Of a stretch of 64,000 bases of DNA, positions 1 through 64,000 are shown one piece after another. The DNA lies in IMG/VR virus record IMGVR_UViG_3300048892_000198, positions 32,001 to 96,000 of that record; one strand, given 5' to 3'. Every line of letters starts with the position of its first letter. The stretch's first letter is position 1. The notes under the pieces are model-generated. The model was not told the origin of the DNA and did no database searches. It saw nothing but the letters and a program-made list of their open reading frames with translations. A program made the position numbers and the translations under genes. The DNA is from a virus.

Positions 1-1545
1 CAGCAGCATGCCGTAGTTCAGCAGGTCGGAGAGATTTTTTCCTGTCTTCTGCGCAACGACGTAACCTGCGGCGCGATCGAGCGCGGCGTTCGTGAGCTGC
101 TGAGCGTTCGCTTTCAGGATGTCGTTGATCTTCTTTTCGGCGCCAACGGTCGCCGCAGTCTTCACGAGATCACCGACGACGGTCACGCTCAAGATCTGAA
201 GTGCCTTCACGGCGGCTTGCTCTTGCGCAAGAGCGCTCGCCATGGAGTTCAGCCAGTTCTGCCTGGTGGTCGAGTCGAGCAGATCGACGCCGGAGGGCAC
301 CGGGTAACTGCATTGATAATGCCGCTCGGCTTCGGGAAGCCAGATCGCGCCCCTCGCCAGAAACGCTTGCGCGTCGCGCTCGAGGCCCGTCGGCATCGTC
401 AGGCCCGACACGATCGGGTAGGGGCAGCCGAAGTCCACGGGGCAGCCGTATGAGTAGACGTTGCTCCTCGCCGTCACGTCTTTGCCCTGCGCGGCGTCGT
501 AGTACGTGGAGGCCTGCACCTGGTGCCCTACCACCTGCGCGCGGTTCGCTTGGGTCTCAGCGCCCGTGAAACGCCGCGTGGGCGCGTCCCACGCGTGCGA
601 GAACGGCTGCCCAATCGGCGCGTATGTCTCGACCCCAAACCACCGAAGGTTAAACTTCCACCCGATGTTGATCTCGGCGAGCTCCCACTGAAGCTCTGTC
701 GAGAGCAGTAGCTGATCGAAGGTCTGCCAGTAGCTCGCGCGCGCGGTCGAGCAGAGGGCATTGGCTTCTGCGACGGTCGACTTAGCCCACGAGCTCTGCG
801 CGTTGATGCGCGATTGGATTTCTTCTGCGCCCGATGGGCCTGCGCCGAAGATCTGCCCGATGGTGCCCCCGATGTCTTTGCCGATGAGCCCACCAATGAA
901 GGCTCCAATGGGCGCCGGGATCCCGAATGCCTGACACACGACAGCGCCCGCGATAGCGCCCGCGACGCCGCCAATGGCTTCGCACTCGGACGGACTCAGC
1001 TTCCCGTCCATGAGCGACTCGGCCGTCACCGTCAGGATCGACGAATCAAGCCCCGTCTCCATCACGAACGCCGTCGTCGCGAGGTTGACCGCGGCGGCCT
1101 TCAGATCTTTGACGTTCGTGGGCCAGTCGGTCGGGATCTGCACACCGAGATCGCTCGCGGCAACCTTCATGGCGTACTGCTCGAGTTCTTTCTGGTTGGT
1201 CGGCACGCCATTGTCGCGCGCGTAGGCGATGAGCGCCTTCTGCATCAGCGCTTCGACCTTCTTCGGATCCTTCAAGTCGCTCACCTTGAAGCCCGGGATC
1301 CCCTTGAAGTAGGCGGCGTATTTATTGTACTCGGCGATGACTGCGGCAGCGGGTGGGTAGTTCTCGAGCTGCTGCTTGGCGTAGGCGATGGCTTGCGCCT
1401 TGGCCTGATCGACGGCGGAGCTGACCGCGGCGTCGGCCTGCTTCTTGTAGTCCTGGGCGCTCGGCACTGTATCCGAGTTGCCCGGCAGATCGCTGTAGCC
1501 AAAGAGGCCGTGACGGCGACGGCGAGGCACTGCGGCGTAGGCCAT
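1..1545 (-). CDS. Large putative virion protein with glycine-zipper hydrophobic segment (runs off the left edge, >515 aa; not in ORF track)
   Basis: ATG at 1545 overlaps the TGA of the upstream gene. Frame is open to base 1: MAYAAVPRRRRHGLFGYSDLPG...GGVAGAIAGAVVCQAFGIPAPIGAFIGGLIG...LSDLLNYGMLL. Confidence 0.85.
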   Translation of the reverse strand, partial: MAYAAVPRRRRHGLFGYSDLPGNSDTVPSAQDYKKQADAAVSSAVDQAKAQAIAYAKQQLENYPPAAAVIAEYNKYAAYFKGIPGFKVSDLKDPKKVEALMQKALIAYARDNGVPTNQKELEQYAMKVAASDLGVQIPTDWPTNVKDLKAAAVNLATTAFVMETGLDSSILTVTAESLMDGKLSPSECEAIGGVAGAIAGAVVCQAFGIPAPIGAFIGGLIGKDIGGTIGQIFGAGPSGAEEIQSRINAQSSWAKSTVAEANALCSTARASYWQTFDQLLLSTELQWELAEINIGWKFNLRWFGVETYAPIGQPFSHAWDAPTRRFTGAETQANRAQVVGHQVQASTYYDAAQGKDVTARSNVYSYGCPVDFGCPYPIVSGLTMPTGLERDAQAFLARGAIWLPEAERHYQCSYPVPSGVDLLDSTTRQNWLNSMASALAQEQAAVKALQILSVTVVGDLVKTAATVGAEKKINDILKANAQQLTNAALDRAAGYVVAQKTGKNLSDLLNYGMLL

Positions 1546-2108
1546 CAGCCGACGATCCCGTCTTTTTCCACTCCCAGGATGTCGCCCGTGATGATCGCGC
1601 AGAGTTCGGTCTTCGTGTAGACGATGAGGAAGGTGTCTCCCGAGTCGGGATGCACGGCCGCTCCCACGTAAGCGCGCGCGATGTCGACCCCATAGTACTG
1701 ACCGCTCAGGACGAGCTCTTCATCGTCGTCGCACTCGGCGTACGGCTGGTACTGGAGCCCCAAGATCGGAGCCAAGACCGCGATCGCGGTCGGCATCCGC
1801 TTCGGAAGCTCGACCTCTTCGCACGGGAATGGCAAGTGCTTGCGCGTGCTGTAGTCGCGAAGGAAGCCGTCCTTGACGTAGAGCTTCTGCGGGCCTTCGG
1901 CGACGTGCTTATAGTCCTGGTAGTCGCCGCGCTTCTTCCACTTATCTGACGTGTATTGCACGGCTTCTGACTGCCCGACGCAGTAGAGCTTTTTCGGCCA
2001 CTTCCAATGGATCTTGGTCTCCTTCTCCACCTTGCGATCGACAAAGGCCTCCCGGATCCGCTTGGCGGATTCGTAGTCGGAAGCGTTGACGATCAGGCGG
2101 CGAGACAT
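1545..2108 (-). CDS. Hypothetical viral protein (soluble, 187 aa)
   Basis: Protein-like composition. N-terminus MSRRLIVNAS. Coupled to the downstream gene. Confidence 0.8.
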   Translation of the reverse strand: MSRRLIVNASDYESAKRIREAFVDRKVEKETKIHWKWPKKLYCVGQSEAVQYTSDKWKKRGDYQDYKHVAEGPQKLYVKDGFLRDYSTRKHLPFPCEEVELPKRMPTAIAVLAPILGLQYQPYAECDDDEELVLSGQYYGVDIARAYVGAAVHPDSGDTFLIVYTKTELCAIITGDILGVEKDGIVG

Positions 2109-2114
2109 GAGGAT

Positions 2115-2513
2115 TCAGCGGCGGCGGCGGACTCTTTTGGCGCGGTCTTCAGGGTAGTACGTCTCGATGAAATCCACGAAGTCGCTCTTGGCCCGGCCAA
2201 CCATCTCGATGATCTTTTCGAGCTTGCCGAAGGTCGCCAGCCCCTTCTTATCTTCGACCGCGAGCCAGCCACCCGATCGACCGGCACGACCCACGCGACC
2301 GATCCAAGAGTACCGACGGCGGAGCTCTTGAGCCAGCACATCGAGCGCTTGGTCGGACTCGGCCGTAAACTCTTCGTCCGTCATGCTCACGCTGACCGGA
2401 GGGATCTTGATATCGAACTCGTACTCCGCGCCCTCGTCACCGATCTTCCACTTCTCATCCCAGCGACAGGACGACTCGAGCGAATGCGCAGGACCTAGTT
2501 CTCCTGGCATCAC
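2115..2513 (-). CDS. Hypothetical protein with Arg-rich C-terminus
   Basis: Lies in operon with GTGA overlap; ends KRVRRRR. Confidence 0.7.
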   Translation of the reverse strand: MMPGELGPAHSLESSCRWDEKWKIGDEGAEYEFDIKIPPVSVSMTDEEFTAESDQALDVLAQELRRRYSWIGRVGRAGRSGGWLAVEDKKGLATFGKLEKIIEMVGRAKSDFVDFIETYYPEDRAKRVRRRR

Positions 2514-2839
2514 TTCCTGCCTTTCCCAAGCAGAAACCCTAAGCCCACCCCAGCGAGCACCGCGCCTACAAACTTCCAGCCTGAGGTCGTAAAATCGAGC
2601 CCGAGACCCTTGAGGCCGGATTTGTTCATGGGGGCGACCATGCCGCGCGCGAGGGGACCCGAGCCAACGAGGCGCGCGTCGCTCGGAACACTGCGCCCGA
2701 TATCGGTCGAGGCGACGCCGAGCGGACTCGTCTTCGGCAGATTCGGGACGGGCAGATCATCTCCGAGCCCGTAGCGCGTGCTCGGGCTATCGAAATAATC
2801 ATACCCGCCCGTATCCGGGCGCCATCGCGAAAAGATCAT
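2510..2839 (-). CDS. C-terminally anchored membrane protein with GLG motifs
   Basis: RYGLGDD and LKGLGLD motifs; C-terminal TM (FVGAVLAGVGLGFLLG) followed by KGRK. Confidence 0.8.
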   Translation of the reverse strand: MIFSRWRPDTGGYDYFDSPSTRYGLGDDLPVPNLPKTSPLGVASTDIGRSVPSDARLVGSGPLARGMVAPMNKSGLKGLGLDFTTSGWKFVGAVLAGVGLGFLLGKGRK

Positions 2840-2854
2840 GCTGACCTTTGCCGC

Positions 2855-3373
2855 TTACTCGCCTTCCGGCGTCTCGTAGTACGTCACGAACACCCCAGTC
2901 GCGTCCGAAGTCTCGGTGCTGCGCACGAGCACGCTCGTCTCCGTATTGACGACTGCCCAGAGGCCTCCGATAGCGCTCGTCGGCTCTTCGGTGTAATTGA
3001 CGTGAAACCACCCTCCGGGGTTTACGTCGAAGCCTGGGATGACGACCGACGCTGGACCGCCTTCGACGCCGGGGGCGAGCGTGCCGATGCCCATCTGCAC
3101 GAGCGCCACAAAGCGCCCCGCCGCGGCTGACGAGCCAATGCCGTTGACTACATTGTCCATCCCGCTCGTGTCTTCGACGATGGAGATCGCCTGATTTTTC
3201 TTCAGGCGGTACATTCGATTAGAGTTCCGGACGAAGACGAGCGTCGCGTCCGGAAACATGTTGACGTTGAGACCGCGGAGCGATTGGCCGTCCGAGCCAT
3301 TGCCCAGCGCCCCCACCTTGTCGACGATCGTGATCCGATCGCCGACTCCAATGTTTCTCGGTGCACTATTCAT
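2855..3373 (-). CDS. Putative spike/fibre adaptor-domain protein (paralog of 3408..3878)
   Basis: Shares RITIV...SL.G.NVN.FP....FV.....Y.L.KN...NVV.G.GSSA.AGRFVAL with its neighbour. Confidence 0.8.
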   Translation of the reverse strand: MNSAPRNIGVGDRITIVDKVGALGNGSDGQSLRGLNVNMFPDATLVFVRNSNRMYRLKKNQAISIVEDTSGMDNVVNGIGSSAAAGRFVALVQMGIGTLAPGVEGGPASVVIPGFDVNPGGWFHVNYTEEPTSAIGGLWAVVNTETSVLVRSTETSDATGVFVTYYETPEGE

Positions 3374-3407
3374 GATCGAATCTCCTCAGATCTAGCGGAC
3401 ACCTGAA

Positions 3408-3878
3408 TTAGCCGACGTAGACGACCGAGTAGGTGCCCGTGTCGGCGCCGTTGGAGCTCGTGAGGCTCACGGTGTTGGGCGCCGTGATCGTGGCGTGCAC
3501 GAAGCCCGGCGTTCCGCCCGGAGTCACGAGCGTGATGATGAAGAAGCCGTTCACGCGGCTCACGTCGAAACCGGTGATACCGGTGGCGCTGCCCGCCGTG
3601 AGCACCGCCGAGCGGAGCTGCATGAGCGCGACGAAGCGGCCGGCTTCGGCAGACGATCCGACGCCGTCGACCACGTTGTTGGCCGGCGTCGCCACGACAG
3701 CGGCGTTCACGTTTTTGCGCAGGGCGTAGAAGCGACTCGAGCTCTCCACGAAGAAGAGCGCGCCCTCGGGGAAGTTGTTGACGTTTTGGCCGGCGAGCGA
3801 GTCGCCGTCCGCGGGGGTGCCGACGGAGCTGACGATCGTGATGCGCTTGGATACCGGGGTCAGAGCTAGGTCAGTCAT
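3408..3878 (-). CDS. Putative spike/fibre adaptor-domain protein (paralog of 2855..3373)
   Basis: Same N-terminal domain as 2855..3373; beta-rich C-terminus. Confidence 0.8.
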   Translation of the reverse strand: MTDLALTPVSKRITIVSSVGTPADGDSLAGQNVNNFPEGALFFVESSSRFYALRKNVNAAVVATPANNVVDGVGSSAEAGRFVALMQLRSAVLTAGSATGITGFDVSRVNGFFIITLVTPGGTPGFVHATITAPNTVSLTSSNGADTGTYSVVYVG

Positions 3879-3939
3879 GATGGTGTCTCTCTTGTCTTTG
3901 GTTGGTTGGTTAGTGGTGATCGAAGTGTAGACCGGAAGC

Positions 3940-4143
3940 CTAGCGACTGGCGCGAATTTCCTTGTGCAGCCTCACCGCGGGCAGGGCGCCGAGCAGCACA
4001 ACCGCACTCACCAATCCGCCTATCACGAACGCCGTCAGATAACCCGAGGCGCATGATTGACAAATCGTACATCCGCTTGCGTCGGTATCACCCATCGGAA
4101 TGGGCGAGGCGGCGGTGTGCATGAGGGGCATCGAGACGTACAT
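3940..4143 (-). CDS. Small membrane protein
   Basis: PMGDT motif, CxxCxxC, one TM segment, basic tail. Confidence 0.65.
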   Translation of the reverse strand: MYVSMPLMHTAASPIPMGDTDASGCTICQSCASGYLTAFVIGGLVSAVVLLGALPAVRLHKEIRASR

Positions 4144-4148
4144 GGCGG

Positions 4149-4346
4149 TTATTTCCAGGTAAAAATCAAAGTGACGACGCCAGCGCCGAGCGCGGCTCCC
4201 AGTAGCAACATCACCAGAGGGCTCGACGTATCGACGGGGGCGGAGTTCGTGCTCGGCGTCGATACCGTCACCGTGAACGGATCGCTGCCCATGCCATGAA
4301 GCGCGGGTTGCGGGTGACGCGGTGTGTAGCGATGCGGCATGTTCAT
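4149..4346 (-). CDS. Small C-terminally anchored membrane protein
   Basis: LHGMGSD motif; C-terminal TM. Confidence 0.7.
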   Translation of the reverse strand: MNMPHRYTPRHPQPALHGMGSDPFTVTVSTPSTNSAPVDTSSPLVMLLLGAALGAGVVTLIFTWK

Positions 4347-4807
4347 CTCGTGGGACGGAAGACTCCGAGGGTGTCAGCTGTTTTCAACACGAGCACTCCG
4401 GCAATAGCGACGGCGCTCCAGAACGCGATCTTGGTCACCGTGTCCGCCGCGCTCTGCAGGATCTGAGTGCTCGATTCGACCTGCGGCTTCTGCACGGTGT
4501 CGTTGCTCGATTTGACGCTCGAGTCGGCGACCGTCGGATACCCAAACGTCACAGCGTCCCAAGGAGCGGGTGACTTAACGCTGAAGATATAGAAGTCGCG
4601 AGCAGGGAAATCAGTCGTCGCCTCGAAACTCTCGGTGTCCTCTACTTGCAGTGAGGCGGCGTTCGTTTTCAGCCACGTCGACATCTTGTCGCGGTTGTCC
4701 CCAAACACGTCGAGCCAGTACCGCCCAGCGGGCAGGGGGTTCGTGCGCATGAGCACACCGAGGGCGGCAATGCTCATGGGGTTATGGACCGAGTGGTACG
4801 ACATCAC
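4343..4807 (-). CDS. Membrane-anchored protein (paralog of 4804..5253)
   Basis: NPLPAGRYWLDVFGDNR...SPAPWDAVTFGYP; C-terminal TM. Confidence 0.8.
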   Translation of the reverse strand: MMSYHSVHNPMSIAALGVLMRTNPLPAGRYWLDVFGDNRDKMSTWLKTNAASLQVEDTESFEATTDFPARDFYIFSVKSPAPWDAVTFGYPTVADSSVKSSNDTVQKPQVESSTQILQSAADTVTKIAFWSAVAIAGVLVLKTADTLGVFRPTR

Positions 4808-5253
4808 GCAGCTCGACGTTTATGCAGCACTGCAACCGTAATCGTGAGACCGATGACAGCGAGCGCACCGATGACCAACGCGGTCATGTTGCTCGAGATT
4901 GGGGCCTTTGGGGCTGAGGCGGAAGCAGGTAACGGCGCAGGCGATGCCGACGGGGATCCCGGAGCCGCGGCAGTGGGCGGCGGCTCGACGGTGATCTCTG
5001 GGTATCCAAACGTGACTGCGTCCCAAGGGACGGGGCTCGTCACCTTGAAGGTGTATTCATCGTAGGTATTCGGGTCCGAGTCATCGGTGCCAGTCGTCTG
5101 AGTGCTGAGCACCTGCACCGCGCCATGATTGGACTGAGCCCATGACGCCATCTTCGAGCGGTTGGCCCCAAACACGTCCACCCAGTACGTGCCGGGAGGA
5201 AGGGGGTTCGAGCGCTGCTCGGACCCTAAGGGTAGGGGGATCCGGTGATACAC
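4804..5253 (-). CDS. Membrane-anchored protein (paralog of 4343..4807)
   Basis: NPLPPGTYWVDVFGANR...SPVPWDAVTFGYP; Pro/Ala linker, TM, HKRR tail. Confidence 0.8.
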   Translation of the reverse strand: MYHRIPLPLGSEQRSNPLPPGTYWVDVFGANRSKMASWAQSNHGAVQVLSTQTTGTDDSDPNTYDEYTFKVTSPVPWDAVTFGYPEITVEPPPTAAAPGSPSASPAPLPASASAPKAPISSNMTALVIGALAVIGLTITVAVLHKRRAA

Positions 5254-5721
5254 TTACGCTCCCGCGCCGCGCGTCTTCTTCCAACGCTTGTAGCTGTAAT
5301 AGCTCGTCGCCAGCGCCGCGACCGCGACGGCGCCGTACACGTACGGATGCACCTGATTGAAGGGGAGCGTCACGTCCGAGCGGAGTGAGCTCACCGGATC
5401 GCCCGCCAGGAGGAAGCGCTTGACGGCGCCCGATGCGTTTTGGGAAACGCTCGCGAGCTCGGAGCTACTGACCGCGCCGAGGCCCTTGACCTGCACGTAG
5501 GAGTTTTGCGTGGGCGAATTCATGCGGTCCGTGCCTTGAAGGGAATTGTCCTGGAAGTACCCAAACTCATCGTAGGGCGCTCGAAAGTGCGCGATGCCGA
5601 CGTAGGATCGCCCAACGGGCCAGCCGTTCCGGTCTTTGGCGACCGCACCGAGCCCTTGGAGCACGGCGTTATCAAATGGCGCATAGGCGTGCGAGCGATC
5701 CACGTACAGGCGGCGAGTCAT
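5254..5721 (-). CDS. C-terminally anchored membrane protein with two GLG motifs
   Basis: Start moved to MTRRLYV (5721, coupled). LQGLGAV and VKGLGAV motifs; TM followed by KRWKK. Confidence 0.8.
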   Translation of the reverse strand: MTRRLYVDRSHAYAPFDNAVLQGLGAVAKDRNGWPVGRSYVGIAHFRAPYDEFGYFQDNSLQGTDRMNSPTQNSYVQVKGLGAVSSSELASVSQNASGAVKRFLLAGDPVSSLRSDVTLPFNQVHPYVYGAVAVAALATSYYSYKRWKKTRGAGA

Positions 5722-6776
5722 TAGACCATGCCCTTCTTCTTGGCGTAGTAGTACGCGCCGCCGGCAGCGATGACAGCCAGGCCACCCATCATGAGCGCGG
5801 CGGTCGACACCGGGTGCTTGCCGGGCGGAGTCGGCGCGGGCGGCGCGCCCGGGGGCGGCTTGGATCCGGGAGCGGCGACGGCCTTCTTCGTCGGCAGGAT
5901 GTATGCCTGGCAGTTCTGGCCACCGTTCATGGTGAGGAGATCGTTGCCGGTGTTGTCGCCGATCCATTTCATCGCGCCACAGGTCTTCGCGTCGAGCACG
6001 CCCGTGACCGGGATGGGGTTCATGCTGTTGCTCGAGAGGATCGCGTTGATCTGATTCTGGAGCGCGGGCATGTCCGAGTCGGCGACGCCCCATTGATGCA
6101 CGATGGCGGGAGCGAGCTGCTGGCCCTGCACGACGTTGGCTTGAGGCGCCACGTAGGTCTTGAGCGGAGCGGACGCGCCGACGAGAGTGGGGTTCGTGCC
6201 CTGGCCGGTGCCGCAGTAGGCGTAGAGGTTGTAGTCCGTCCACACCGTCGATTGGCGGGGGTTCGTGCTGTAGAGGTAGAAGGCGGCGCCGCAGGTGGCG
6301 GGGCCGAGTTTGCCGTCAGCCGCGATCGTCTTGTAGCCGTTCCGGGAGAGATCGGCGTTGAGCGCGGCTTGCGCCTGCTTGACCGTTGCCGAGGCGAGCG
6401 TACCGGTTTGCTGCGCGATGGCGGCGTACTGCGCGCAGTTTTTCGGCACGCAGACCGCGGCGTCGTTGGCTGCCGAGTAGGCGTTGGTGCAGTCGTCGAC
6501 CGACATGCCGTACTGAGCGGCGTTGGTTTGGCAGTCCTGAGCAGCAGCGGCAAACTGCTGCGCATGGCAGTCCTGAAACGCCTGAATGCCCCAGCACTGC
6601 CAGGGGATCTCTCCGGGGGCCGCGGACGATCCGAGGCCCGCGACGGCGCCGTTCGTGAAGTACTCGCCGGCGGAGTTACTTTGCCGAGATCCGCGCGTGA
6701 TGGGCGTGTAGCGCGGCAGCACGCTGCCGGAGAGGGGTCGCGCTTGCGCGCTACGTGGGTTGAAGATGCCGCTCAT
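5721..6776 (-). CDS. Membrane-anchored protein with two peptidoglycan-binding (PG_binding_1-like) domains
   Basis: VKQAQAALN...GY..IAADGKLGPATC and LQNQIN...VTGVLDAKTC; VAGLGSS motif; TM followed by KKK. Start moved to MSGIFNP. Confidence 0.8.
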   Translation of the reverse strand: MSGIFNPRSAQARPLSGSVLPRYTPITRGSRQSNSAGEYFTNGAVAGLGSSAAPGEIPWQCWGIQAFQDCHAQQFAAAAQDCQTNAAQYGMSVDDCTNAYSAANDAAVCVPKNCAQYAAIAQQTGTLASATVKQAQAALNADLSRNGYKTIAADGKLGPATCGAAFYLYSTNPRQSTVWTDYNLYAYCGTGQGTNPTLVGASAPLKTYVAPQANVVQGQQLAPAIVHQWGVADSDMPALQNQINAILSSNSMNPIPVTGVLDAKTCGAMKWIGDNTGNDLLTMNGGQNCQAYILPTKKAVAAPGSKPPPGAPPAPTPPGKHPVSTAALMMGGLAVIAAGGAYYYAKKKGMV

Positions 6777-6778
6777 GA

Positions 6779-7510
6779 TTAGCCTCGACGTTTCTTGATG
6801 AAGTAGACGATGCCCACCGCGAGGAGCCCGCCGCCCACGAAGCCCATCACCTTTTTGGTGTTCGAGCTCATGAGCGGGAGGGAAGAGTTGACCGATGCTT
6901 GCGCCGGCTTGATGGAGGTGACGGTGCTGCCGCCGCCCCCACCGCAGCCCGCGCTCGCGAGCGTCGGCGTTGCATAGTCCTGGCACGTGCTCGGGTTACT
7001 GTAGATGGCCCCCGAGGTGTCATCGATCGTGAGCCGATTGCGCGCGCCGCAGGTCGCCGGTCCGAGCTTTCCATCGACTGCCACCGGGCAATAGCCGGCA
7101 GCCTTGAGCGCGACGTTGGTGGCGGTTTGCAATGCCGCGGTCTTCGCGCTGTACGCGCGCCACGGGTAGTCAGCGGCGTCGCTCGTCGCGTCTCCGAGCG
7201 TGCGCGCCTTGCCGAGCGAGGGCGCGCCGGCGAGATTGCCGTCGAAGACGCCGCCGCCGTAGCCGCCGGGGCGAAAGATCCCTTCGCCCACGTTGAATTC
7301 TTGGGATCCGAGTCCTGAGTATCCGCCTGGGGGCTTGTCGGGGATCATGTCGATGTCTCTCGGTGGAAGAAAAACGGTCGTGGGCTGCTGGATCTGCGGA
7401 AACTTAAACGCCGGCCGCGACCAGATCCCGCCGTGGAAGCGCGTGGGGTAGGGCGGCACGTGCATCGTGTACGGCGTCGGCACGCCTGCGGGATAGCCGG
7501 GGCCTTTCAC
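6779..7510 (-). CDS. Membrane-anchored protein with one PG-binding-like domain
   Basis: ALQTATNVALKAAGYCPVAVDGKLGPATC; YSGLGSQ motif; TM followed by KKRR. GTG start coupled to the upstream stop. Confidence 0.8.
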   Translation of the reverse strand: MKGPGYPAGVPTPYTMHVPPYPTRFHGGIWSRPAFKFPQIQQPTTVFLPPRDIDMIPDKPPGGYSGLGSQEFNVGEGIFRPGGYGGGVFDGNLAGAPSLGKARTLGDATSDAADYPWRAYSAKTAALQTATNVALKAAGYCPVAVDGKLGPATCGARNRLTIDDTSGAIYSNPSTCQDYATPTLASAGCGGGGGSTVTSIKPAQASVNSSLPLMSSNTKKVMGFVGGGLLAVGIVYFIKKRRG

Positions 7511-8055
7511 TTGTGCTCCAGCGCGATGATGGCCTCGATGCCGAGACCGATGGGTCCCCCGAGGAGCGCCGCGGCGACGCCCCACCAGGCGTATTTCGAC
7601 TCGCGATCGCGGCTCGGCGCGACGGCCTTGCCGACGTAGTAGCCGCCGACGCCCGAGAGTACGATGCCGACTGCCGCAGCGGCGATGACGACCGCGCTCG
7701 CTGCAGCGACGGGTGCCGCCGCGCCGGGCACGGTTGGAGTGGTCGCATCACCGAGACCACTCACGGCCCGCACGGCGCGCACGAGGGGCGAGCCATTGAG
7801 CACGCGACCGAGCACACCAGAGCTGGTGGCTGACGGCGTCGGCATCTCGTACAGGCGCGAGTACGAGCCGATGCCGTCGGGGCTGCCGCGCATCCCGAGC
7901 GGCGCCATCGGATAGGCCGCGGGGTTGTACTGGGCATTGCCGTAGCCAGCGTTGGCTTGCACGACATCGTTGTGCCGCACCGGGAGCTGTTGCCCTGAGC
8001 TCACGACGCCGGGGGTCGTCAGCACTTCGTCTTCGTCGTCTTGATAGTCAAACAT
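7507..8055 (-). CDS. Membrane protein with two C-terminal TM segments and GLG motif
   Basis: Start MFDYQDD; VSGLGDA motif; two hydrophobic helices. Confidence 0.8.
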   Translation of the reverse strand: MFDYQDDEDEVLTTPGVVSSGQQLPVRHNDVVQANAGYGNAQYNPAAYPMAPLGMRGSPDGIGSYSRLYEMPTPSATSSGVLGRVLNGSPLVRAVRAVSGLGDATTPTVPGAAAPVAAASAVVIAAAAVGIVLSGVGGYYVGKAVAPSRDRESKYAWWGVAAALLGGPIGLGIEAIIALEHK

Positions 8056-8756
8056 CACTTCTTCTTTCGAAAGAGCGCGTAGAGAGCGCCCGCGGCGGCG
8101 CCCACGAGCAGCACCTTGACGACGGTGGATGACGAATCGGCAGCAGGAGCCGGCGCGGGGAGCGAGGCGTCGCCGTAGCCCTGCACGCCGTAGCCTGAGT
8201 CCCGGATGCTCTGCGGATCTTGCATCCAATTGGCGATGTTGACGCCGGGCATGGGAGCAGCCTCTTGCCAGCGCACGACGTTTCTTGGCGTGCTGTAGCG
8301 GCCCTGCTCGATGAATGCGATCTGCGCCGCCGAATCGAGGCTGACGGCGCCCGAGGGCACCGCCACCACGCGGCGTCCGGTTGTCGCATCGACCACCTCG
8401 GTCTTACTGAAGGGCACCTCGCGCGCGTGGTAACCGGGGAGCGAATAGCGCGCAGCAAACACGCCCGCGTCCGGGTGCACGTTGGGGTGCGTGCCCGGGG
8501 GATCGAAGACACCGTTCGATTGGATGTCGTCCATCTCGGCCAGGAGCTCGAGTTCGTTAGAGGCCCAGCCGGGGTTGGCCGATTCGTCGGAGACTTCGGT
8601 GTCGGTGCCGGCGAGCCTTCGGCCGTAGCGCCGGTCGAAGGGCGCGGCGTAGCCCGGGGCGAGATTGCTCGTATAGCGGAGATCGGAGGGACCGACCGCA
8701 ACCATCGACGGCAGATCGCCCGTGTAGGGCTGGGACGGGTACATGGGGTAGCGCAT
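8055..8756 (-). CDS. C-terminally anchored membrane protein
   Basis: VQGYGDA motif; TM followed by RKKK. Confidence 0.8.
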   Translation of the reverse strand: MRYPMYPSQPYTGDLPSMVAVGPSDLRYTSNLAPGYAAPFDRRYGRRLAGTDTEVSDESANPGWASNELELLAEMDDIQSNGVFDPPGTHPNVHPDAGVFAARYSLPGYHAREVPFSKTEVVDATTGRRVVAVPSGAVSLDSAAQIAFIEQGRYSTPRNVVRWQEAAPMPGVNIANWMQDPQSIRDSGYGVQGYGDASLPAPAPAADSSSTVVKVLLVGAAAGALYALFRKKK

Positions 8757-8777
8757 GGTGATCTTGTTTCTTTCCGC

Positions 8778-9158
8778 TCAACCGGTGGCGACCTTGAAGA
8801 CGACGATGGCGGCGATGGTGACGCCCAGGTAAAGGCCCCAGCGAGTCTTCACCGATTGGGAGACGGCCGCTGGGGCGAAGGGGGAAGCGCAGTGGGTCTG
8901 GGTGATGACGCCCCAGGCGCCTTTCTGCGCGCCCTGCGTGGCGCGCTTGGGGATGGTCTCGACGACGCGCGTCTGACCATCGGGGCACGGGAAGGGCGCG
9001 GCGCACGGGAGCACCTGCGCTTCTGCGCACTCGGGCGAATCGATATCGACCTGGTTACACGCCAGCTGCGCGGCTTTCCAGGAAGCGAAATCGGTGCACG
9101 TCGAGGCGACGGGATTGTCTCCCATGCCGCGCTGCTGGATGGTGGCAGAATAACTCAT
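8778..9158 (-). CDS. Cys-rich C-terminally anchored membrane protein
   Basis: Start moved to MSYSATIQQRGMGDN; CTDFASWKAAQLACN; C-terminal TM. Confidence 0.75.
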   Translation of the reverse strand: MSYSATIQQRGMGDNPVASTCTDFASWKAAQLACNQVDIDSPECAEAQVLPCAAPFPCPDGQTRVVETIPKRATQGAQKGAWGVITQTHCASPFAPAAVSQSVKTRWGLYLGVTIAAIVVFKVATG

Positions 9159-9163
9159 CTGGG

Positions 9164-56171: not shown

Positions 56172-58313
56172 ATGGCCGATCGAAGCAGCGTTGCGAGTCG
56201 AAATATCGGGGCCGTGGGCACCCTCCTCGGTGCCGGAAATTCGCTCGAAAACGTCAACACGTCGCTGCTCGACGACGGTTGCTTCGCCTACGTCGAATCC
56301 GAGCACGAGCACTACGAGCTCCACCGCGACGATACGACGCCGCCCTCCCCCCCGAACATCATCGAGCCCATCGCAGGCCCCGGCCGCTGGGTGCCGGCGA
56401 CGGGCGGGACGATCGGTGCGCAGGGCTTCCAGGGCGCCCAAGGGGCGCAGGGCTTCGGCGCGCAGGGGGCGCAAGGATCTCAGGGCGCTGGCACGCAGGG
56501 CGCGCAGGGTGCCCAAGGCAACACGGGCGGCGCGCAAGGCGCCCAAGGCGCGCAGGGTCGTCAAGGCGCGCAGGGCGCTGGCACGCAGGGCGCGCAGGGA
56601 TTCCAGGGAGCCACGGGCGGGTCGGGCAATCAGGGTAGCCAGGGGGCTCAAGGCGCGCAGGGCGCCCAAGGCTTTCAGGGTGCCACGGGCTCGACTGGCA
56701 ACCAAGGAGCGCAGGGCGCCCAAGGCGCCCAAGGCAATCAAGGTTTTCAGGGCGCGACGGGCACGGGAGCCCAAGGTGCGCAAGGCGCGCAGGGCATCGG
56801 TGCGCAAGGATCTCAGGGTTTCCAGGGCGCAACCGGCGCGGGCGCGCAGGGCGCGACGGGCACGCAAGGCTTTCAGGGTGCTCAGGGCTTCCAAGGCGGG
56901 GGCTTCCAGGGCGCGCAAGGATCGACCGGTGCGCAGGGATCCGGGGGCGGCGCTCAAGGCGCCCAGGGTGCGACGGGCACGCAGGGTTTCCAGGGCGCCC
57001 AAGGGCAAACGGGCGCAGGATCGCAGGGTGCCCAGGGCGCCACGGGCGCACAGGGCTTTCAGGGAGCGGCCGGCACCGGCGGTGCGCAAGGAAGCCAAGG
57101 CGCGACCGGCGCTGGCGGCGCACAGGGCGCGCAAGGCGCGACCGGCACGGGATCGCAGGGCGCGCAAGGCGCAACCGGCACCGGAGGCGCTCAAGGATCG
57201 CAGGGCGCCACGGGCGCAGGATCCCAAGGCGCTCAAGGCTTCCAAGGCGCGACCGGGGCTGGGTCGCAAGGCGCGCAGGGCGCGACGGGCACGCAGGGCT
57301 TCCAGGGTGCGCAGGGTTTCCAAGGCGGGGGCTTTCAGGGCGCGCAGGGTTTTCAGGGCGCAGTCGGTCCGGGCGGCGGCGCGCAGGGTGCCCAAGGGGC
57401 AACGGGCACGCAAGGCTTCCAGGGCGCCCAAGGCTTTCAAGGGGGAGGATTCCAGGGCGCGCAGGGAGCAACCGGCACGCAGGGCTTCCAAGGCGCCACG
57501 GGCGCAGGATCTCAAGGCGCTCAAGGCGCCACGGGCTCGCAGGGCTTTCAGGGTGCGACCGGCACGACCGGTGCTCAAGGCGCGCAGGGCGCGACTGGGA
57601 CCACGGGTGCTCAAGGCGCTCAGGGCGCGACCGGCACGACGGGCAATCAAGGAGCGCAAGGCGCTACTGGCACAACCGGAGCTCAGGGCGCCCAAGGCGC
57701 GACGGGCACGACGGGAGCTCAAGGCGCTCAGGGCGCGACGGGCACCACGGGAGCTCAAGGCGCGCAGGGCGCGACGGGCACGACGGGCAATCAAGGAGCG
57801 CAAGGCGCTACTGGCACAACCGGAGCTCAGGGCGCGCAGGGTGCGACGGGCACGACTGGTGCTCAAGGCGCTCAGGGCGCGACGGGCACCACGGGCGCGC
57901 AGGGCTTCCAAGGTGCTACTGGCTCGGGATCGCAGGGCGCGCAGGGCGCAACGGGAGCTCAAGGCGCTCAAGGCGCGCAGGGCTTTCAGGGATCCGCCAA
58001 CATCGTCAACGAGGTCAATGCTGGTAACTCCGGCACAGCCCTCACCATCAACTTCACGACGGGCCCCAATCAGCTGACCACGCTGACCGGCAACGTGACC
58101 TTCACGTTGACGGCGCCGAGCAACTCCCGCCACGTGCAGGTCCGCATGGTGCAGGACGGTACCGGCGGTCGCACGGTGACTTGGCCCGCTGCCGTCAAGT
58201 GGGCAGGCGGCACGCAACCCACCTGGGTGACGACGGCGGCTGCCATCAACATCGCGAGCTTCTACTACGACGGCACCAACTACTGGGGTGTCGGGTCGAC
58301 GGGCTTCGCATGA
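56172..58313 (+). CDS. Collagen-like fibre protein (adaptor domain, ~525-aa Gly-X-Y stalk, C-terminal beta-sandwich)
   Basis: GAQ/GFQ/GAT triplets; C-terminal [23 protein letters not shown]...YDGTNYWG domain typical of phage fibres. Confidence 0.9.
56415..57989 (+). repeat. Collagen-coding tandem repeats (9-nt triplet units; 36-nt [12 protein letters not shown] units; 144-nt duplication at 57633/57777)
   Basis: Direct reading of the sequence. Confidence 0.9.
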
Positions 58314-59068: not shown

Positions 59069-60094
59069 ATGGCGCTCCCGAACCTGGTATTTTTTGGGCG
59101 AGCGACGGTACCCTACAGCCAGGTGCCTCCGCTCGGCGGCGACGGCTCGTGCAACGAAGCCTTTAAGAACGCCGTCTGGGCGCAGACGGCGCTCGACACC
59201 AATCCCTCCGAGAGTGGATCGTTCCTGGCGACCAGTTGCTACGATTCGGCGCATCGCCGGGTCTACCTCTTCGGCAGCACGGACTCGATCGCTTACTCCG
59301 CCGCCTACGACTGCAACGCGGACACGTACACTCAGATCGGAGATCTTCCGACCGCGAGCGGGCAGCAGACTTATGCAGCGGCCGCCGCCGGCAAGGCCTG
59401 GCTTTTTGGCGGCGGAGCAGGCGTGCCCTTTACGACCAACTCCCCGACCGCTGGGATCCAGAGCTACGATCTTTCCCAGGTGCCCGGATCGGGTACGACT
59501 TATTCGACCATCGCTCCGGTGGTGTCGTACTCGGCCTACGGGCTGTTTGGTGACTATGATCCGGTCACCAAGCTGATCTACTTCGGCGGAGGCTGCGACA
59601 ATATCGCAGGTCCTCCCGGCCCCGCCAACTGCTTCAATCAATGGCAGAGCTTCGATCCGTTCTCGCCGGCAACGCCGACCGCGCTCCATGTGATGCCGGT
59701 GAAGGTCGCCGAGAGCGCCTGCGCCCTCCTGAACGGCGTCATCTACGTCATCGGCGGATCGCTTGACGCGACCCCAGAGACCGTCGGCACGCGCGGCGTC
59801 TACGCCTACAACATTGCGACCAACACGTGGACGACGAAAAACAATTTTCCCATCGACATCGCCTGCGGTCGTGCCTGCAATTGGAACGGCACGCTCTATT
59901 GCGGTGGCGGCTGGAACGCCTCCGGATTCAGCTTCTCCGTCACGAACGCCACTCAAAATATCTACGCCTACAATCCCCTCGCCGATAGCTGGTCGCTGCA
60001 CTCGCAGGCGACCTTCCAGGCGGCGGGCTCCATCCTGGTCGGCCTCAACTCCCCGCCGAGCGGGCTCTTCTTCGGCGCGGGCACGACGAGCTAA
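59069..60094 (+). CDS. Kelch-repeat beta-propeller protein with C-terminal FFGAGTTS tag
   Basis: VYLFG, AWLFGG, IYFGGG, IYVIGG, LYCGGG repeats; YNIATNTW and YNPLADSW; ends PPSGLFFGAGTTS. Confidence 0.85.
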   Translation: MALPNLVFFGRATVPYSQVPPLGGDGSCNEAFKNAVWAQTALDTNPSESGSFLATSCYDSAHRRVYLFGSTDSIAYSAAYDCNADTYTQIGDLPTASGQQTYAAAAAGKAWLFGGGAGVPFTTNSPTAGIQSYDLSQVPGSGTTYSTIAPVVSYSAYGLFGDYDPVTKLIYFGGGCDNIAGPPGPANCFNQWQSFDPFSPATPTALHVMPVKVAESACALLNGVIYVIGGSLDATPETVGTRGVYAYNIATNTWTTKNNFPIDIACGRACNWNGTLYCGGGWNASGFSFSVTNATQNIYAYNPLADSWSLHSQATFQAAGSILVGLNSPPSGLFFGAGTTS

Positions 60095-61756: not shown

Positions 61757-63208
61757 ATGGGCCAAAGCAGCGTTGCGAGTCGAAATATTGGGGCGGTCGC
61801 TACCCTGCTTGGCACCGAGGATTCCCTCGAGAACCTCTGCACGCAGACGTTCGATGATGGCTGCCTCGCGTACGTGCAGGCCGAGCACAAGCACTACGAG
61901 CTCCACAAAGATTCGACCGCAGCGAGTGATCCGCCCTTCGTGATCGTGCCGATCTGCGGCATGGGCCGCTGGGTCCCCGCGACGACGGTGATCGGGGCAG
62001 AAGGTCCGCAGGGATTCCAGGGCGCCCAAGGTGCACAGGGAGCTACTGGTGCTCCCGGATCGAGCGCCCCTTTTCGGGCAACGTACTACGTCGATCCGAC
62101 CTTTGGAGGAGTCGAACTCGGCAGTCAGTCGAGTCCCTTCACGACCGTCGCCGCCGCGTTTGCGGCGGGCACGGCGCTCGGCATCGTGGATGGGATTGTG
62201 TTCGTGCCGCCGGGCCCGATGAGCGAAGACATCGTGTTCCCGCCGTCGGGGAGCTGGGAGCTGTCTTCCACGGTCCAAGGTCAAACGCAAAGGACTCAGC
62301 TGACTGGCACCGTGACCCTGGACAGCACGGCGCAAGCCTTTCACAGCATCAGCAACATCGTGCTCCTCGGCAACGTGACCGGCGACAAGGCAAACGCCAA
62401 CACCAACCGACTCTTCTTCCGGAACGTCGAAATCAACACGAACCTGACGCTGACTTCCTCAGGCACCGGAAATTGGCTCGTGTACTTCGATGGCACGATC
62501 CCAGTACCGAGCAATGCGACGGGCCTCTTGGCAGGGATCTTCGGCACCTGCTCGATTGCGGGATCGCTGTTTGCGTCCGGATGCAACCTAGAGAACGTCA
62601 TCACCGTCTCGTCGGACAGCGCCTTCCGCAACGTCTTCTTCAACAATAACCAGCACGGCACCTTGGTTGCGACGACCGGCGCGGGACTCGTCAATCTCAC
62701 CTTCACCGGATGCGCGCAAAAGAATCCTGCCACCATCACGGCGACGACGGGCAGCGTGGTGGCGGTATTCGATAGCTTCAGTTGGGCGGCGGCTTGCTCT
62801 ACAGGTTTAGGTTTGATCGCAGGCACGGCGTGCACGTTTAAGACGCTCGCCTCGAACCAATCATCCTCCACCACCGACACAAACAACCGTGCCTCGACTG
62901 CCTTGGGAGGACGCTCACCCGACGGGCTCTATGAGATCGTCTATGACGCGACGCTGCTCGGCAATGGCGGCGGCGCAAGCGGCCTCTTGCAACTCAACGC
63001 GATCTACACGGACATGACCGGCACGCTCGTCACGGTGCCGGTGGGCACGCCTCTCAATGTCGCTGCTGCGGTCGGTAGCAAATCCAGTGGCTCGCTGCCG
63101 TTTCATCACTCGGGCGCCGCGGCGCCGATCGCGTTTTCGACGACGGGAGTGACCGCGCCCGGAGCGATGTCGGTGGCGCTCACCGTGACGCTTCGCCGGG
63201 TCAACTAA
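61757..63208 (+). CDS. Fibre/spike paralog: adaptor domain, short collagen, beta-helix-like body
   Basis: Shared N-terminal domain; GPQGFQGAQ; YYVDP...GSQSSPFTTVAAA motif that typically precedes pectin-lyase-like beta-helices. Confidence 0.85.
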   Translation: MGQSSVASRNIGAVATLLGTEDSLENLCTQTFDDGCLAYVQAEHKHYELHKDSTAASDPPFVIVPICGMGRWVPATTVIGAEGPQGFQGAQGAQGATGAPGSSAPFRATYYVDPTFGGVELGSQSSPFTTVAAAFAAGTALGIVDGIVFVPPGPMSEDIVFPPSGSWELSSTVQGQTQRTQLTGTVTLDSTAQAFHSISNIVLLGNVTGDKANANTNRLFFRNVEINTNLTLTSSGTGNWLVYFDGTIPVPSNATGLLAGIFGTCSIAGSLFASGCNLENVITVSSDSAFRNVFFNNNQHGTLVATTGAGLVNLTFTGCAQKNPATITATTGSVVAVFDSFSWAAACSTGLGLIAGTACTFKTLASNQSSSTTDTNNRASTALGGRSPDGLYEIVYDATLLGNGGGASGLLQLNAIYTDMTGTLVTVPVGTPLNVAAAVGSKSSGSLPFHHSGAAAPIAFSTTGVTAPGAMSVALTVTLRRVN

Positions 63209-63262
63209 CCCGCCCCAGGGTGCTTCGGGAGTGAGTCCGGGGGGATTCTTGCTCGGGCTCAG

Positions 63263-63301
63263 CCCAAAAACTTGAGCCGCGCCCGAAAGGCGGGGTAGGC
63301 T
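63263..63301 (+). promoter_or_regulatory. Class-1 promoter AAAAAC-TTGAGC-N18-TAGGCT
   Basis: Duplicate of 61697..61735. Confidence 0.7.
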
Positions 63302-63406
63302 CGACCCACTAGGTCGGTTTGGGTCCGCGTTCGAGCGCGGGGACAGACGGGACGACAGAGCGTTGGCGCAGATGCGCGCCCTTTCCTCTGGAGCTCCCCC
63401 TTGGCC

Positions 63407-64000
63407 ATGGACACAAGCAGCGTTGCCAGCCGAAATATCGGAGCGGTGGCCACCCTCCTCGGTGGAGTCAACTCCCTCGAAAATGTCGGCACGCAGACGC
63501 TCGACGACGGCTGCTTCGCCTACGTGCAGTCCGAGCTCATCCACTACGAGCTCCACAAGGAGTCGACCGCACCGAGTAACCCACCCTTCGTGATCGTGCC
63601 GATTTGCGGCGTCGGTCGCTGGGTGCCGGCGACGGGCGGCGGCGGATCGCAGGGCTTCCAGGGTGCGCAGGGTCGCCAGGGCGCCCAAGGATCGCAAGGC
63701 GCGGGCGCGCAAGGCGCAACGGGTACGCAGGGCAGTCAAGGACCCCAAGGTAACCAGGGCGCGCAGGGTTTCCAGGGCGGCGGCTTTCAGGGCGCGCAGG
63801 GTGGCACCGGCGCTCAAGGTCCGAGCGGCGGCGCGCAGGGCGCCCAGGGCGCGACGGGCCAGCAGGGCTTTCAGGGATCGAGCGGCGGCGCGCAGGGTGC
63901 CCAAGGCACGACGGGCCAGCAGGGCGCCCAAGGAGCGCAGGGCAATCAGGGCAGCGGCGCTCAAGGCGCCCAAGGCGCGCAGGGCTCCGGCACGCAGGGC
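63407..64000 (+). CDS. Third collagen-like fibre paralog (runs off the right edge; not in ORF track)
   Basis: [43 protein letters not shown]...GRWVPAT followed by GSQGFQGAQ repeats. Confidence 0.9.

Follow-up and report, generated by a model that had tools for sequence, protein, structure and literature searches.

A widespread lineage of 110-180 kb replicons whose gene content suggests large, tailless, membrane-containing bacterial viruses

The tecti-, cortico- and autolykiviruses are tailless, have an internal membrane and possess many small membrane proteins. The PRD1-type coat protein is a double jelly roll, and the spike protein P5 of PRD1 has a collagen-like shaft. In the Thermus phage P23-77 and in SH1, HHIV-2 and HCIV-1 two jelly-roll coat proteins are encoded by adjoining genes in a neighbourhood rich in membrane proteins; their conserved gene block includes a packaging ATPase of the FtsK/HerA type, and their genomes measure about 17-31 kb. 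SSIP-1 infects bacteria and has an orphan genome whose structural module includes tail-anchored proteins. Sulfolobus polyhedral virus 1 (SPV1; Portogloboviridae) is a 20-kb virus of a hyperthermophilic archaeal host. Its capsid proteins VP4 and VP10 (PDB 6OJ0) are separate single-jelly-roll shell proteins, and the particle contains an inner lipid layer, many small membrane or sub-capsomer proteins and a core of protein-condensed DNA (PMC8459092). SPV1 also has CRISPR mini-arrays, and a packaging ATPase is absent from the assigned functions in its profile (PMC8459092).

The DNA analysed here, referred to as the window, is a 64-kb stretch taken from an IMG/VR virus record of 110.7 kb (G000), in which it occupies bases 32001-96000; positions are those of the window unless given as genome positions. 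The completeness of the contig was 82% according to CheckV, and the full genome is estimated at about 110-135 kb with the window in its middle. Four relatives rated complete by CheckV have 135-179 kb, and three of them end in exact terminal repeats, i.e. G001 (135 kb, repeats of 120 bp), G003 (179 kb, 33 bp) and G004 (144 kb, 123 bp). A 316-aa protein of the lineage had 543 homologues in a set of 5.8 billion proteins, encoded by contigs whose length reached about 185 kb, and was present at 21 IMG/VR loci. Among 185,579 species genomes it was found in a single one, on a free 122.7-kb contig of a Pseudomonadota MAG. Genomes of the lineage measured about 110-180 kb, and its more distant relatives were found on contigs of 55-104 kb. 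At about 110-180 kb, the element constitutes a replicon of its own and not a chromosomal island. The lineage is widespread and undescribed; a literature search did not find a paper describing it.

Three adjoining genes directly upstream of the window occurred at every one of the 21 related IMG/VR loci and were adjacent in nearly all of them. The best conserved of the three, g28302 (genome 28302-29054), had a median identity of 59% and was 91% identical to its counterpart in G001. Its model was a confident single jelly roll with a pLDDT of 81.5 and a pTM of 0.81. The closest solved structure was SPV1 VP4 with a Z of 7.6, which falls under the level deemed a safe match in the aligner's own notes, and an rmsd of 3.3 Å over 135 of 178 residues. 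VP4 led the next entry by 1.8 Z units, and the capsid proteins of SH1, HCIV-1, HHIV-2 and P23-77 followed with Z of 4.9-5.8, no better than many other jelly rolls. Foldseek returned mostly jelly-roll capsid proteins, with SPV1 VP4 at rank 11, and the best match in BFVD was I1ZBH9, a viral protein of 211 aa without a name (E 3e-5). The model of g27171 (genome 27171-28121), a helix plus a beta sandwich, was of lower confidence (pLDDT 66); its top matches were jelly-roll capsid proteins with Z of 6.4-7.6. Structure models cover these two proteins, and g26337 (genome 26337-27158), the neighbour of g27171, is the third capsid candidate. Jelly rolls exist in cellular surface proteins too, and TNF-like and BclA folds occurred lower in the same structural match lists. 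Profile searches with the three families detected no known capsid protein as a sequence homologue, and profile comparison among the three revealed no homology to one another. On the basis of the models g28302 and g27171 seem to be jelly-roll capsid-like proteins. The sequence-only reading had suggested a large lineage with a possible jelly-roll capsid, for which the upstream flank supplies candidates; an FtsK/A32-type packaging ATPase, for which it had also advised a search, was not detected. Because of this the lineage does not fit the tecti-, cortico- and autolykivirus model with which that reading had compared it.

Adjoining the capsid candidates is the gene of a 717-aa protein consisting of an Arg/Lys-rich domain of 400 residues followed by two predicted membrane helices. 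Residues 1-400 contain 175 Lys and Arg (44%) versus 5 Asp and Glu, and a domain of this type is typical of genome-condensing virion proteins. The morphogenesis module extends from genome 21.7-32 kb, at the left end outside the window, through positions 1-11075 of the window. In a Kyte-Doolittle scan, at least 11 genes between 1 and 10521, all on the minus strand, encoded proteins with a membrane helix at the C-terminus, and the upstream flank contributed six further ones (genome 22370-26186). The block of membrane-anchored proteins suspected earlier was borne out. The reading frames were checked by conservation in G001.

Next in line, downstream of the genes for the capsid candidates and the basic protein, is the gene of a tail-anchored 531-aa protein with a Gly/Ala-rich hydrophobic centre (genome 31950-33545, minus strand; its 3' part is at 1-1545 of the window). 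It is 60% identical to G001 and closes with a hydrophobic helix and the residues KKRKS; its sole PHROG match was a weak one to a tape-measure family (E 7.5e-5). The remaining genes of the block are on the minus strand as well. A soluble 187-aa core protein (1545-2108), present in G001, G003 and G004 and in 15 of the 21 loci, had no match in Pfam or PHROG searches. The same was true of eight small genes at 2115-5253, four of which encode tail-anchored membrane proteins by hydropathy (3940-4143, 4149-4346, 4343-4807 and 4804-5253). A 421-aa tail-anchored protein (5721-6986; transmembrane helix at residues 393-411) was 68.5% identical to G001 in tblastn and matched PG_binding_1 at a sub-threshold E of 0.0026. 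It is followed by three proteins with C-terminal membrane helices (6779-7585, 7507-8229 and 8055-8756), whose frames are conserved in G001 with E of 9e-94, 6e-69 and 6e-118, respectively; the third belongs to the core genes of the lineage. Two membrane-anchored proteins, supported by the helix scan and conservation in G001 (9164-9784 and 9784-10521), and a 190-aa core protein (10503-11075), which has homologues in the distant clade L033/L034 also, end the block.

Genes for putative surface structures are located on the plus strand at the other end of the window. A 279-aa core protein conserved across four genomes (51681-52520) precedes a GT2 glycosyltransferase fused to a methyltransferase (52620-53936; Pfam), and additional glycosyltransferases are encoded in the flanks of the window. 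A 713-aa collagen-like repeat protein (56172-58313; Pfam Collagen 2.3e-46) lies in a region of 72% G+C, followed by a Kelch-repeat beta-propeller protein (59069-60094; Kelch_1 3.2e-13, phrog_16120), a 483-aa protein with a weak collagen match (61757-63208) and a collagen-like fibre of 1695 aa (window 63401 to genome 100488; Collagen E 2e-32).

The remainder of the window is dominated by genes of bacterial type. Between the morphogenesis and the replication blocks, on the minus strand like all genes up to 42268 listed here, are an 840-aa core protein (12059-14581) with no match in Pfam or PHROG and no meaningful one in the PDB, a 247-aa core protein conserved across four genomes (15076-15819), for which a Pfam search gave no match, and a sigma-70 family factor with regions 2 and 4 (17511-18728; Sigma70_r2 1.2e-9, Sigma70_r4 3.3e-8). 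The replication cluster at 20552-24302 comprises a MazG-like pyrophosphatase (20552-21262), DnaB helicase (21557-23068; E 6e-75), a 147-aa DnaA domain-IV helix-turn-helix protein (23032-23475; E 1e-19) and a DUF1643 protein (23754-24302). The neighbours of DnaB had been read as Rep-DnaC, an assignment replaced by the latter two families. There is no DnaC in G000, and the only classical Walker-A protein besides DnaB is a 192-aa AAA_28/nucleotide-kinase-like P-loop protein (27004-27582). Further genes encode a ThyX thymidylate synthase (25369-26304; Pfam), a DNA polymerase III beta sliding clamp (37965-39176; DNA_pol3_beta 4.6e-10, phrog_947) and an R2K-clade ATP-grasp enzyme (41189-42268; Pfam R2K_2 5.9e-29). 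The earlier calls of collagen fibres, glycosyltransferases, sigma factor, DnaB, clamp and ThyX were all confirmed. A plus-strand gene pair (46119-47978) encodes a 424-aa membrane protein (phrog_2087) and a 192-aa protein of phrog_1383, whose label 'virion structural protein' is weak because it matches 6 of 14 named control cellular genomes too. A response-regulator gene is present on the contig as well, as is a Cas12-like gene accompanied by a mini-array.

Four genomes have 14 core genes in common. Among these are the three capsid candidates, two GT4 glycosyltransferases and genes of membrane-anchored proteins; DnaB, the clamp, ThyX and the sigma factor are not. The replication genes are thus not conserved across the lineage, and the 'hybrid' architecture of the sequence-only reading is therefore a conserved morphogenesis core combined with exchangeable replication modules.

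Hallmarks of tailed phages and of packaging were searched for in the contig and its four relatives. Terminase_6N, TerL_ATPase, Terminase_3, Phage_capsid, Phage_portal and FtsK_SpoIIIE had no match in these five records, and Pox_A32 gave just one sub-threshold Walker-A match of 23 positions. Terminase, portal, capsid and tail families were absent from the best 25 of 48 and the best 25 of 50 families in whole-proteome PHROG and Pfam scans. ORFs of at least 400 aa were scanned one by one, all in G000 and most in G001. Because the direct Pfam searches covered some of the capsid, portal and terminase families and the scans the best families listed, a very divergent HK97-fold protein may hide among the ORFs that were not folded. 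Walker-A proteins were DnaB and the AAA_28 kinase-like protein in G000 and G001, DnaB and its neighbour, putatively DnaC-like by position, in G003, and four non-conserved proteins in G004. Thus in three of the four genomes checked all of them resemble replication or nucleotide enzymes, and none is conserved lineage-wide. The reported lack of terminase, portal and tail genes therefore extends from the window to the whole contig and the complete relatives, and an HK97 capsid was likewise not found in the flanks or in these relatives, so that the sequence-only reading withstood the refutation test it had set itself.

SPV1 shares several features with the lineage. In addition to the structural similarity of VP4, its inner lipid layer and condensed DNA core have possible counterparts in the membrane proteins and the basic protein, no packaging ATPase was detected in the lineage either, and both have a glycosyltransferase, a methyltransferase and CRISPR mini-arrays. 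Yet sequence homology was not detected, and the genomes described here are 5-9 times larger, have their own replication and takeover genes, collagen-like fibres and a Cas12-like effector beside the array, and encode the membrane-anchored 717-aa protein in place of a small VP1-type core protein. The P23-77 group resembles the lineage in gene layout, but no counterpart of its packaging ATPase was found. With SSIP-1 the lineage shares a probable bacterial host, an orphan genome and the tail-anchored proteins of the structural module; I1ZBH9, the best BFVD match of g28302, has the same length as SSIP-1 gp46 and may be that protein. However, SSIP-1 proteins scored close to zero bits with the profiles of the three families, an hhalign comparison between the g28302 family and gp46 gave a probability of <1%, the structural protein gp40 has a Walker-A motif, unlike the structural-module proteins here, and the genomes of the lineage are 2.5-4 times larger. 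In contrast to PRD1-type viruses both folded proteins are single jelly rolls (Z for PRD1 P3 just 4.7-4.8), no A32/FtsK ATPase, protein-primed polymerase or rolling-circle Rep was seen, and the genome is about ten times larger.

With moderate confidence we assign the window to an undescribed lineage of bacterial viruses that are large and tailless, contain a membrane and lack a packaging motor. The outer shell would be built from two or three adjacent single-jelly-roll proteins (g28302, g27171 and perhaps g26337) over a virion membrane populated by about 18 small tail-anchored proteins. The 717-aa protein might condense the DNA onto this membrane, replacing an ATP-driven motor, and collagen-like fibres, the Kelch propeller and several virus-encoded glycosyltransferases would decorate the surface. 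Sigma-70, DnaB, DnaA domain-IV protein, clamp, ThyX, MazG and ATP-grasp enzyme make up an exchangeable module for replication and takeover. A jelly-roll shell over a membrane with protamine-condensed DNA is so far known only in viruses several times smaller. The particle might instead be enveloped, pleomorphic or novel, with an outer membrane round a protamine-condensed core and the jelly rolls serving as spikes, glycoproteins or matrix-like proteins. This agrees with the lack of any detectable packaging ATPase, the very many membrane proteins and the membrane anchor of the hyperbasic protein, and jelly rolls can serve in receptor binding; the matches of g28302 included PRD1 P5 and phage fibre tips. 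We regard it as unlikely, since g28302 aligns over 76% of VP4, which forms the hexameric shell capsomers of SPV1, its next structural neighbours are the shell proteins of SH1, HCIV-1 and P23-77, and two or three adjoining jelly-roll genes are the layout of viruses with two single-jelly-roll coat proteins.

Similarly improbable is a non-viral origin, in which the IMG/VR label is wrong and the element is a large plasmid-like replicon with cell-envelope functions such as collagen-like fibres, glycosylation and membrane proteins, with regulators and with a Cas12-like CRISPR system for competition between mobile elements. No viral hallmark gene was detected by sequence, G001 has a tyrosine integrase in its accessory region, response regulator, sigma factor and Cas12-like gene with mini-array would suit such a replicon, and terminal repeats of an assembly prove merely that it closes on itself. 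However, the Walker-A proteins of the four genomes included no ParA-type, VirB4-type, coupling or relaxase-associated proteins beyond replication enzymes and non-conserved helicase-like proteins, and the conserved core consists of jelly-roll, membrane and protamine-like proteins, not replication genes. The long Arg/Lys domain points to a virion, and the single species genome contrasts with hundreds of metagenome contigs. A tailed phage (Caudoviricetes) with head, portal, terminase and tail genes that have diverged past sequence recognition or belong to the 18% lacking from the contig is very improbable. The contig is indeed incomplete, and the 1695-aa protein matches PHROG 'tail fiber' families, in addition to the tape-measure match of the 531-aa protein. 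Yet the fibre matches run through the Gly-X-Y repeats, and ORFs downstream of the fibre had no tail or baseplate matches. CheckV-complete relatives lack the genes in question as well, and the 27 kb of G001 absent from G000 hold only small ORFs, the integrase and a DUF7227 protein. TerL, moreover, is a P-loop ATPase, and the Walker-A proteins of G000, G001 and G003 are accounted for by family or position.

The viral lineage favoured here probably has bacterial hosts, as suggested by its sigma-70, DnaB, DnaN and DnaA-domain genes. The contig in the Pseudomonadota MAG, the sole link to a genome bin, is a weak pointer to the host.

The contig that holds the window (its bases 32001-96000) is a single piece of 110,728 bp with 63.5% G+C, entered in IMG/VR as a 'linear' virus record with a CheckV completeness of 82%. 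Because the contig is incomplete, relatives were sought. Genes were called as GC3-scored ORFs, and the frames in window 5000-11100 were corrected by conservation in a relative. No tRNA genes were found in the contig. When 24 kb of the window were compared by megablast with GenBank phages and with PLSDB plasmids, there was no match.

Left of the window lie three adjacent capsid-candidate genes, g28302, g27171 and g26337, which are named by their start in the whole record (genome coordinates). The product of g27171 (genome 27171-28121, 316 aa) had 543 homologues in a set of 5.8 billion proteins. The contigs bearing them cluster at 110-140 kb and reach 185 kb, and 21 IMG/VR loci carry the gene. 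Among 185,579 species genomes there was one match; it lies on a free contig of 122.7 kb in the bin of a Pseudomonadota MAG. Thus, we concluded that the element is an independent replicon and not a chromosomal island. In the CheckV-complete relatives from IMG/VR, designated G001 to G004, exact terminal repeats of 120 bp in G001 (135,429 bp), 33 bp in G003 (179,401 bp) and 123 bp in G004 (143,727 bp) were seen. G001 keeps synteny with the contig except that one segment is inverted and that G001 has an accessory region of 27 kb. A 15-kb segment with a Cas12-like gene has opposite orientations in the two genomes, and the accessory region (G001 1-27400, loci L025-L026) adjoins the Cas12-like gene and contains small ORFs, a tyrosine integrase and a DUF7227 protein. 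In a distant clade (loci L033, L034 and L035) a homologue of the g28302 protein of about 195 aa is encoded on IMG/VR contigs of 55-104 kb. It is followed by a protein of about 210 aa, which in one locus has a weak likeness to g27171 (E 3e-8), with tail-anchored proteins around. The lineage thus extends beyond the group of 110-180 kb. No paper on the lineage or on its IMG/VR record names was found in the literature. The Cas12m-bearing myxophage MV-1 (preprint 10.64898/2026.09.14.751636) was considered and rejected as a different virus, being tailed and having HK97, TerL and portal genes.

Each of the 21 loci has all three candidate genes in unchanged order, and nearly always side by side. Conservation in the lineage is highest for the protein of g28302 (genome 28302-29054, 250 aa), with a median identity of 59% and 91% identity to G001. 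An exhaustive HMMER search placed 92 representative clusters in its family, among them the forms of about 195 aa, which are 30-40% identical. The sequence-only reading had suggested a membrane virion with a possible jelly-roll capsid, and the flanks were checked for such a protein. An AlphaFold2 model of g28302 from a 51-sequence alignment (pLDDT 81.5, pTM 0.81) is a confident single jelly roll. In a Foldseek-independent search of 48,161 representative chains its top match was VP4 of SPV1 with a Z of 7.5, in the range the aligner terms 'middling', and an rmsd of 3.4 A over 135 of 178 residues. Prominent among the matches after it were the HHIV-2, HCIV-1 and P23-77 capsid proteins, the STIV turret, FLiP and PRD1 P3. 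When Foldseek candidates were re-aligned, VP4 reached a similarly middling Z of 7.6 (rmsd 3.3 A, 135 of 178 residues, identity 11%), 1.8 Z units ahead of the next. The Foldseek lists for g28302 were dominated by jelly-roll capsid proteins. Its best BFVD match was an unnamed 211-aa viral protein (E 3e-5), and Foldseek against the PDB at E <= 0.001 gave no match for the g28302 or the g27171 model. The model of g27171 is of lower confidence (pLDDT 66) and shows an N-terminal helix and a beta sandwich, whose best structural matches were again jelly-roll capsid proteins at Z values of 6.4-7.6, also middling. As modelled, both folded candidates are single jelly rolls, and double-jelly-roll proteins align to them by one barrel only. 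The jelly-roll fold of g28302 is well supported and its capsid role is probable.

The third candidate, g26337 (genome 26337-27158, 273 aa), and an 840-aa protein of the lineage gave uninformative results in the ESM Atlas. Sequence or profile searches of the PDB with the three candidates and the 840-aa protein returned nothing relevant. No relationship among the three candidate families was seen with hhalign, and by sequence they are not detectable paralogues. When g27171 and g28302 were compared with GenBank phages by tblastn, nothing meaningful was obtained; a match of E 0.04 under the portal gene of an Agrobacterium phage was dismissed as chance level.

Directly upstream of g28302, on the minus strand, a 717-aa protein is encoded at genome 29204-31357 (L002:13204-15357). 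Its residues 1-400 contain 175 Arg and Lys compared with 5 Asp and Glu, while two predicted membrane helices and Gly-rich repeats of the GEYF/GLG type lie past residue 400. It has homologues in 16 of the 21 loci and is, judged from its composition, a candidate membrane-anchored DNA condenser. The block of small membrane-anchored proteins noticed from the sequence was confirmed by a hydropathy scan: in window 1-10521 at least 11 proteins, without exception encoded on the minus strand, carry a membrane helix at the C terminus, and the flank at genome 22370-26186 adds another six.

Fourteen genes are common to the contig, G001, G003 and G004. They encode the three jelly-roll candidates, two GT4 glycosyltransferases, a three-helix membrane protein, a tail-anchored protein and proteins of 187, 190, 840, 247, 279, 233 and 192 aa without assigned function. 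This core does not include DnaB, the clamp, ThyX or the sigma factor. It is therefore the morphogenesis module that defines the lineage, whereas the replication module can be exchanged. The comparison of core genes refines in this way the 'hybrid' architecture proposed from the sequence.

Most of the enzymes and fibres named in the sequence-only reading were recovered with the Pfam and PHROG scans, namely a sigma-70 factor (window 17511-18728), DnaB (21557-23068, E 6e-75), ThyX (25369-26304) and the beta clamp (37965-39176) on the minus strand, and a GT2 glycosyltransferase fused to a methyltransferase (52620-53936) and a collagen-like protein (56172-58313) on the plus strand; a second collagen-like protein of 1695 aa starts at window 63401. 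The assignment of Rep and DnaC genes beside DnaB did not hold. The neighbour of DnaB is a 147-aa DnaA domain-IV DNA-binding protein, followed by a DUF1643 protein, and the census of Walker-A motifs described below showed no DnaC-type P-loop protein in the contig. No DNA polymerase family was among the Pfam and PHROG matches listed. On the minus strand of the window there are also an R2K-clade ATP-grasp enzyme (41189-42268) and an eCIS_core/DUF4157 domain protein (50045-50866). The window further encodes a MazG-like protein, a kinase-like protein of the AAA_28 family and a Kelch propeller. A 424-aa membrane protein and then a 192-aa protein are encoded on the plus strand at window 46119-47978. 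The former matched phrog_2087 (E 2e-105) without a Pfam match and the latter phrog_1383 (E 3e-58). The label 'virion structural protein' of phrog_1383 is doubtful because this family also matches 6 of 14 named control cellular genomes.

Genes of tailed phages were sought in the window and both flanks. Each ORF of at least 400 aa in the contig was scanned with Pfam and PHROGs, and then the 138 predicted proteins of the contig singly. There were no terminase, portal, capsid or tail families among the best 25 of 48 PHROG and the best 25 of 50 Pfam families. Six-frame searches of the contig and G001 to G004 gave no match at E <= 0.1 to Terminase_6N, TerL_ATPase or Terminase_3, to Phage_capsid or Phage_portal (one Pfam model each), or to FtsK_SpoIIIE. 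For Pox_A32 one sub-threshold Walker-A fragment was seen in these five records and nothing above the cut-off. The lack of recognisable terminase, portal and tail genes, first noticed in the window, extends in these scans to both flanks and, for the terminase and portal models searched, to the four relatives. HK97, terminase, portal or tail genes in the flanks, or a location on a chromosomal island, were looked for as evidence against a tailless virus and not found by these scans.

The most telling result on packaging genes is the census of classical Walker-A motifs. The contig and G001 each have DnaB and the AAA_28 kinase-like protein and no other such motif. G003 has DnaB and an adjoining protein that is DnaC-like by position only. 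By family or position the Walker-A proteins of these three genomes are replication or nucleotide enzymes. G004 has four others, none among the core genes. We concluded that the lineage is without a conserved P-loop ATPase that could fill the part of a terminase or of a packaging enzyme of the A32 type. As a separate observation, two classical Walker-A P-loop proteins each in the contig, G001 and G003 are unusually few for replicons of 110-179 kb.

The nearest known design is that of the Portogloboviridae, and the lineage is not a member of this family. In portogloboviruses, VP4 and VP10 are single jelly rolls, sub-capsomer proteins accompany an inner lipid layer, and the DNA core is condensed by protein. 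They also encode a glycosyltransferase and a methyltransferase and carry mini-CRISPR arrays (PMC8459092). Their genomes are circular and of about 20 kb, and their hosts are hyperthermophilic archaea. The lineage shares the VP4-like single-jelly-roll fold in the model of g28302, but sequence homology of the capsid proteins was not detected, and the g28302-family profile recovered no capsid protein from all PDB sequences. Its genomes are of 110-180 kb and encode bacterial-type sigma-70, DnaB, DnaN and DnaA domain IV. A comparable lipid layer and nucleoprotein core are suggested by about 18 tail-anchored proteins and the 717-aa protein. With P23-77 and SH1 the lineage has in common two adjacent candidates for single-jelly-roll coat proteins, a likeness at the fold level only, yet its conserved block lacks a packaging ATPase. 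In contrast to the PRD1-adenovirus type, none of the five records gave an FtsK/HerA (A32-like) packaging ATPase match above the cut-off. The bacterial phage SSIP-1 (43.8 kb) likewise has tail-anchored proteins in its structural module, whereas its structural protein gp40 bears a Walker-A motif. Profiles of the three candidate families scored about zero bits against SSIP-1 proteins in hmmsearch, and hhalign probabilities were below 1%.

The most far-reaching view, to which we give somewhat less than even confidence, is that the elements of 55-180 kb are bacterial viruses with motor-free assembly and make up a deep group at the level of a realm. A membrane-anchored, protamine-like protein would condense their genome onto a vesicle, and a lattice of separate single-jelly-roll proteins would then enclose it. 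They would be a bacterial counterpart of the portoglobovirus design, five- to nine-fold larger; their replication modules would be exchangeable and cell-like, and an RNA-guided Cas12-like system would be their own. As the most likely mode of working, the jelly-roll proteins would form the outer lattice and the tail-anchored proteins would populate the membrane beneath it. The hyperbasic, membrane-anchored 717-aa protein would condense the genome against the membrane, and a packaging motor would therefore be unnecessary. The collagen-like fibres and the Kelch protein may be appendages of the surface or the vertices, to which the encoded transferases possibly add sugars. The sigma factor would redirect the host RNA polymerase, while DnaB, the DnaA-domain protein and the clamp would recruit a host polymerase.

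Three other readings were weighed against a motor-free, membrane-containing virus. A plasmid-like element is improbable in our view. No ParA, VirB4, coupling protein or relaxase was among the P-loop proteins of the Walker-A census or the listed Pfam families. A virus of another morphology we rate as equally improbable. A very divergent tailed phage appears very improbable. The 'tail' matches were to collagen-repeat fibre families, with one weak tape-measure match and nothing else. The PHROG 'tail fiber' matches of the 1695-aa protein fall in its collagen repeats, and the ORFs beside it had no tail or baseplate match.

To our knowledge, the cultured tailless membrane-containing phages all have genomes of about 9-44 kb, large bacterial virus genomes are assumed to be those of tailed phages, and motor-free assembly around a nucleoprotein core has so far been seen in one archaeal family. 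If widespread viruses of 110-180 kb indeed combine a jelly-roll shell and a membrane with the lack of a packaging ATPase, genome size would be uncoupled from the HK97/terminase design and the motor-free route would reach bacteria. A sizeable share of the metagenomic virome would then escape marker-based virus classification. The lineage offers for study new families of candidate capsid proteins, a putative membrane-anchored DNA condenser and compact Cas12-like effectors.

Finally, CRISPR-like arrays were observed at both ends of the contig. Five identical 36-nt repeats at genome 59-390 adjoin a 514-aa gene (genome 452-1996, locus L001) with a weak match to a Cas12f-type TNB domain (E 0.008). 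This gene itself is matched, at genome 1850-1887, by the spacer at genome 166-203 with 2 mismatches in 38 positions. At genome 110351-110704 (L003:18351-18704) there are six degenerate repeats of 36-37 nt that correspond, in reverse complement, to the repeat at the opposite end. The break of the contig is therefore flanked by two inverted CRISPR-like arrays, a possible cause of the assembly stop.
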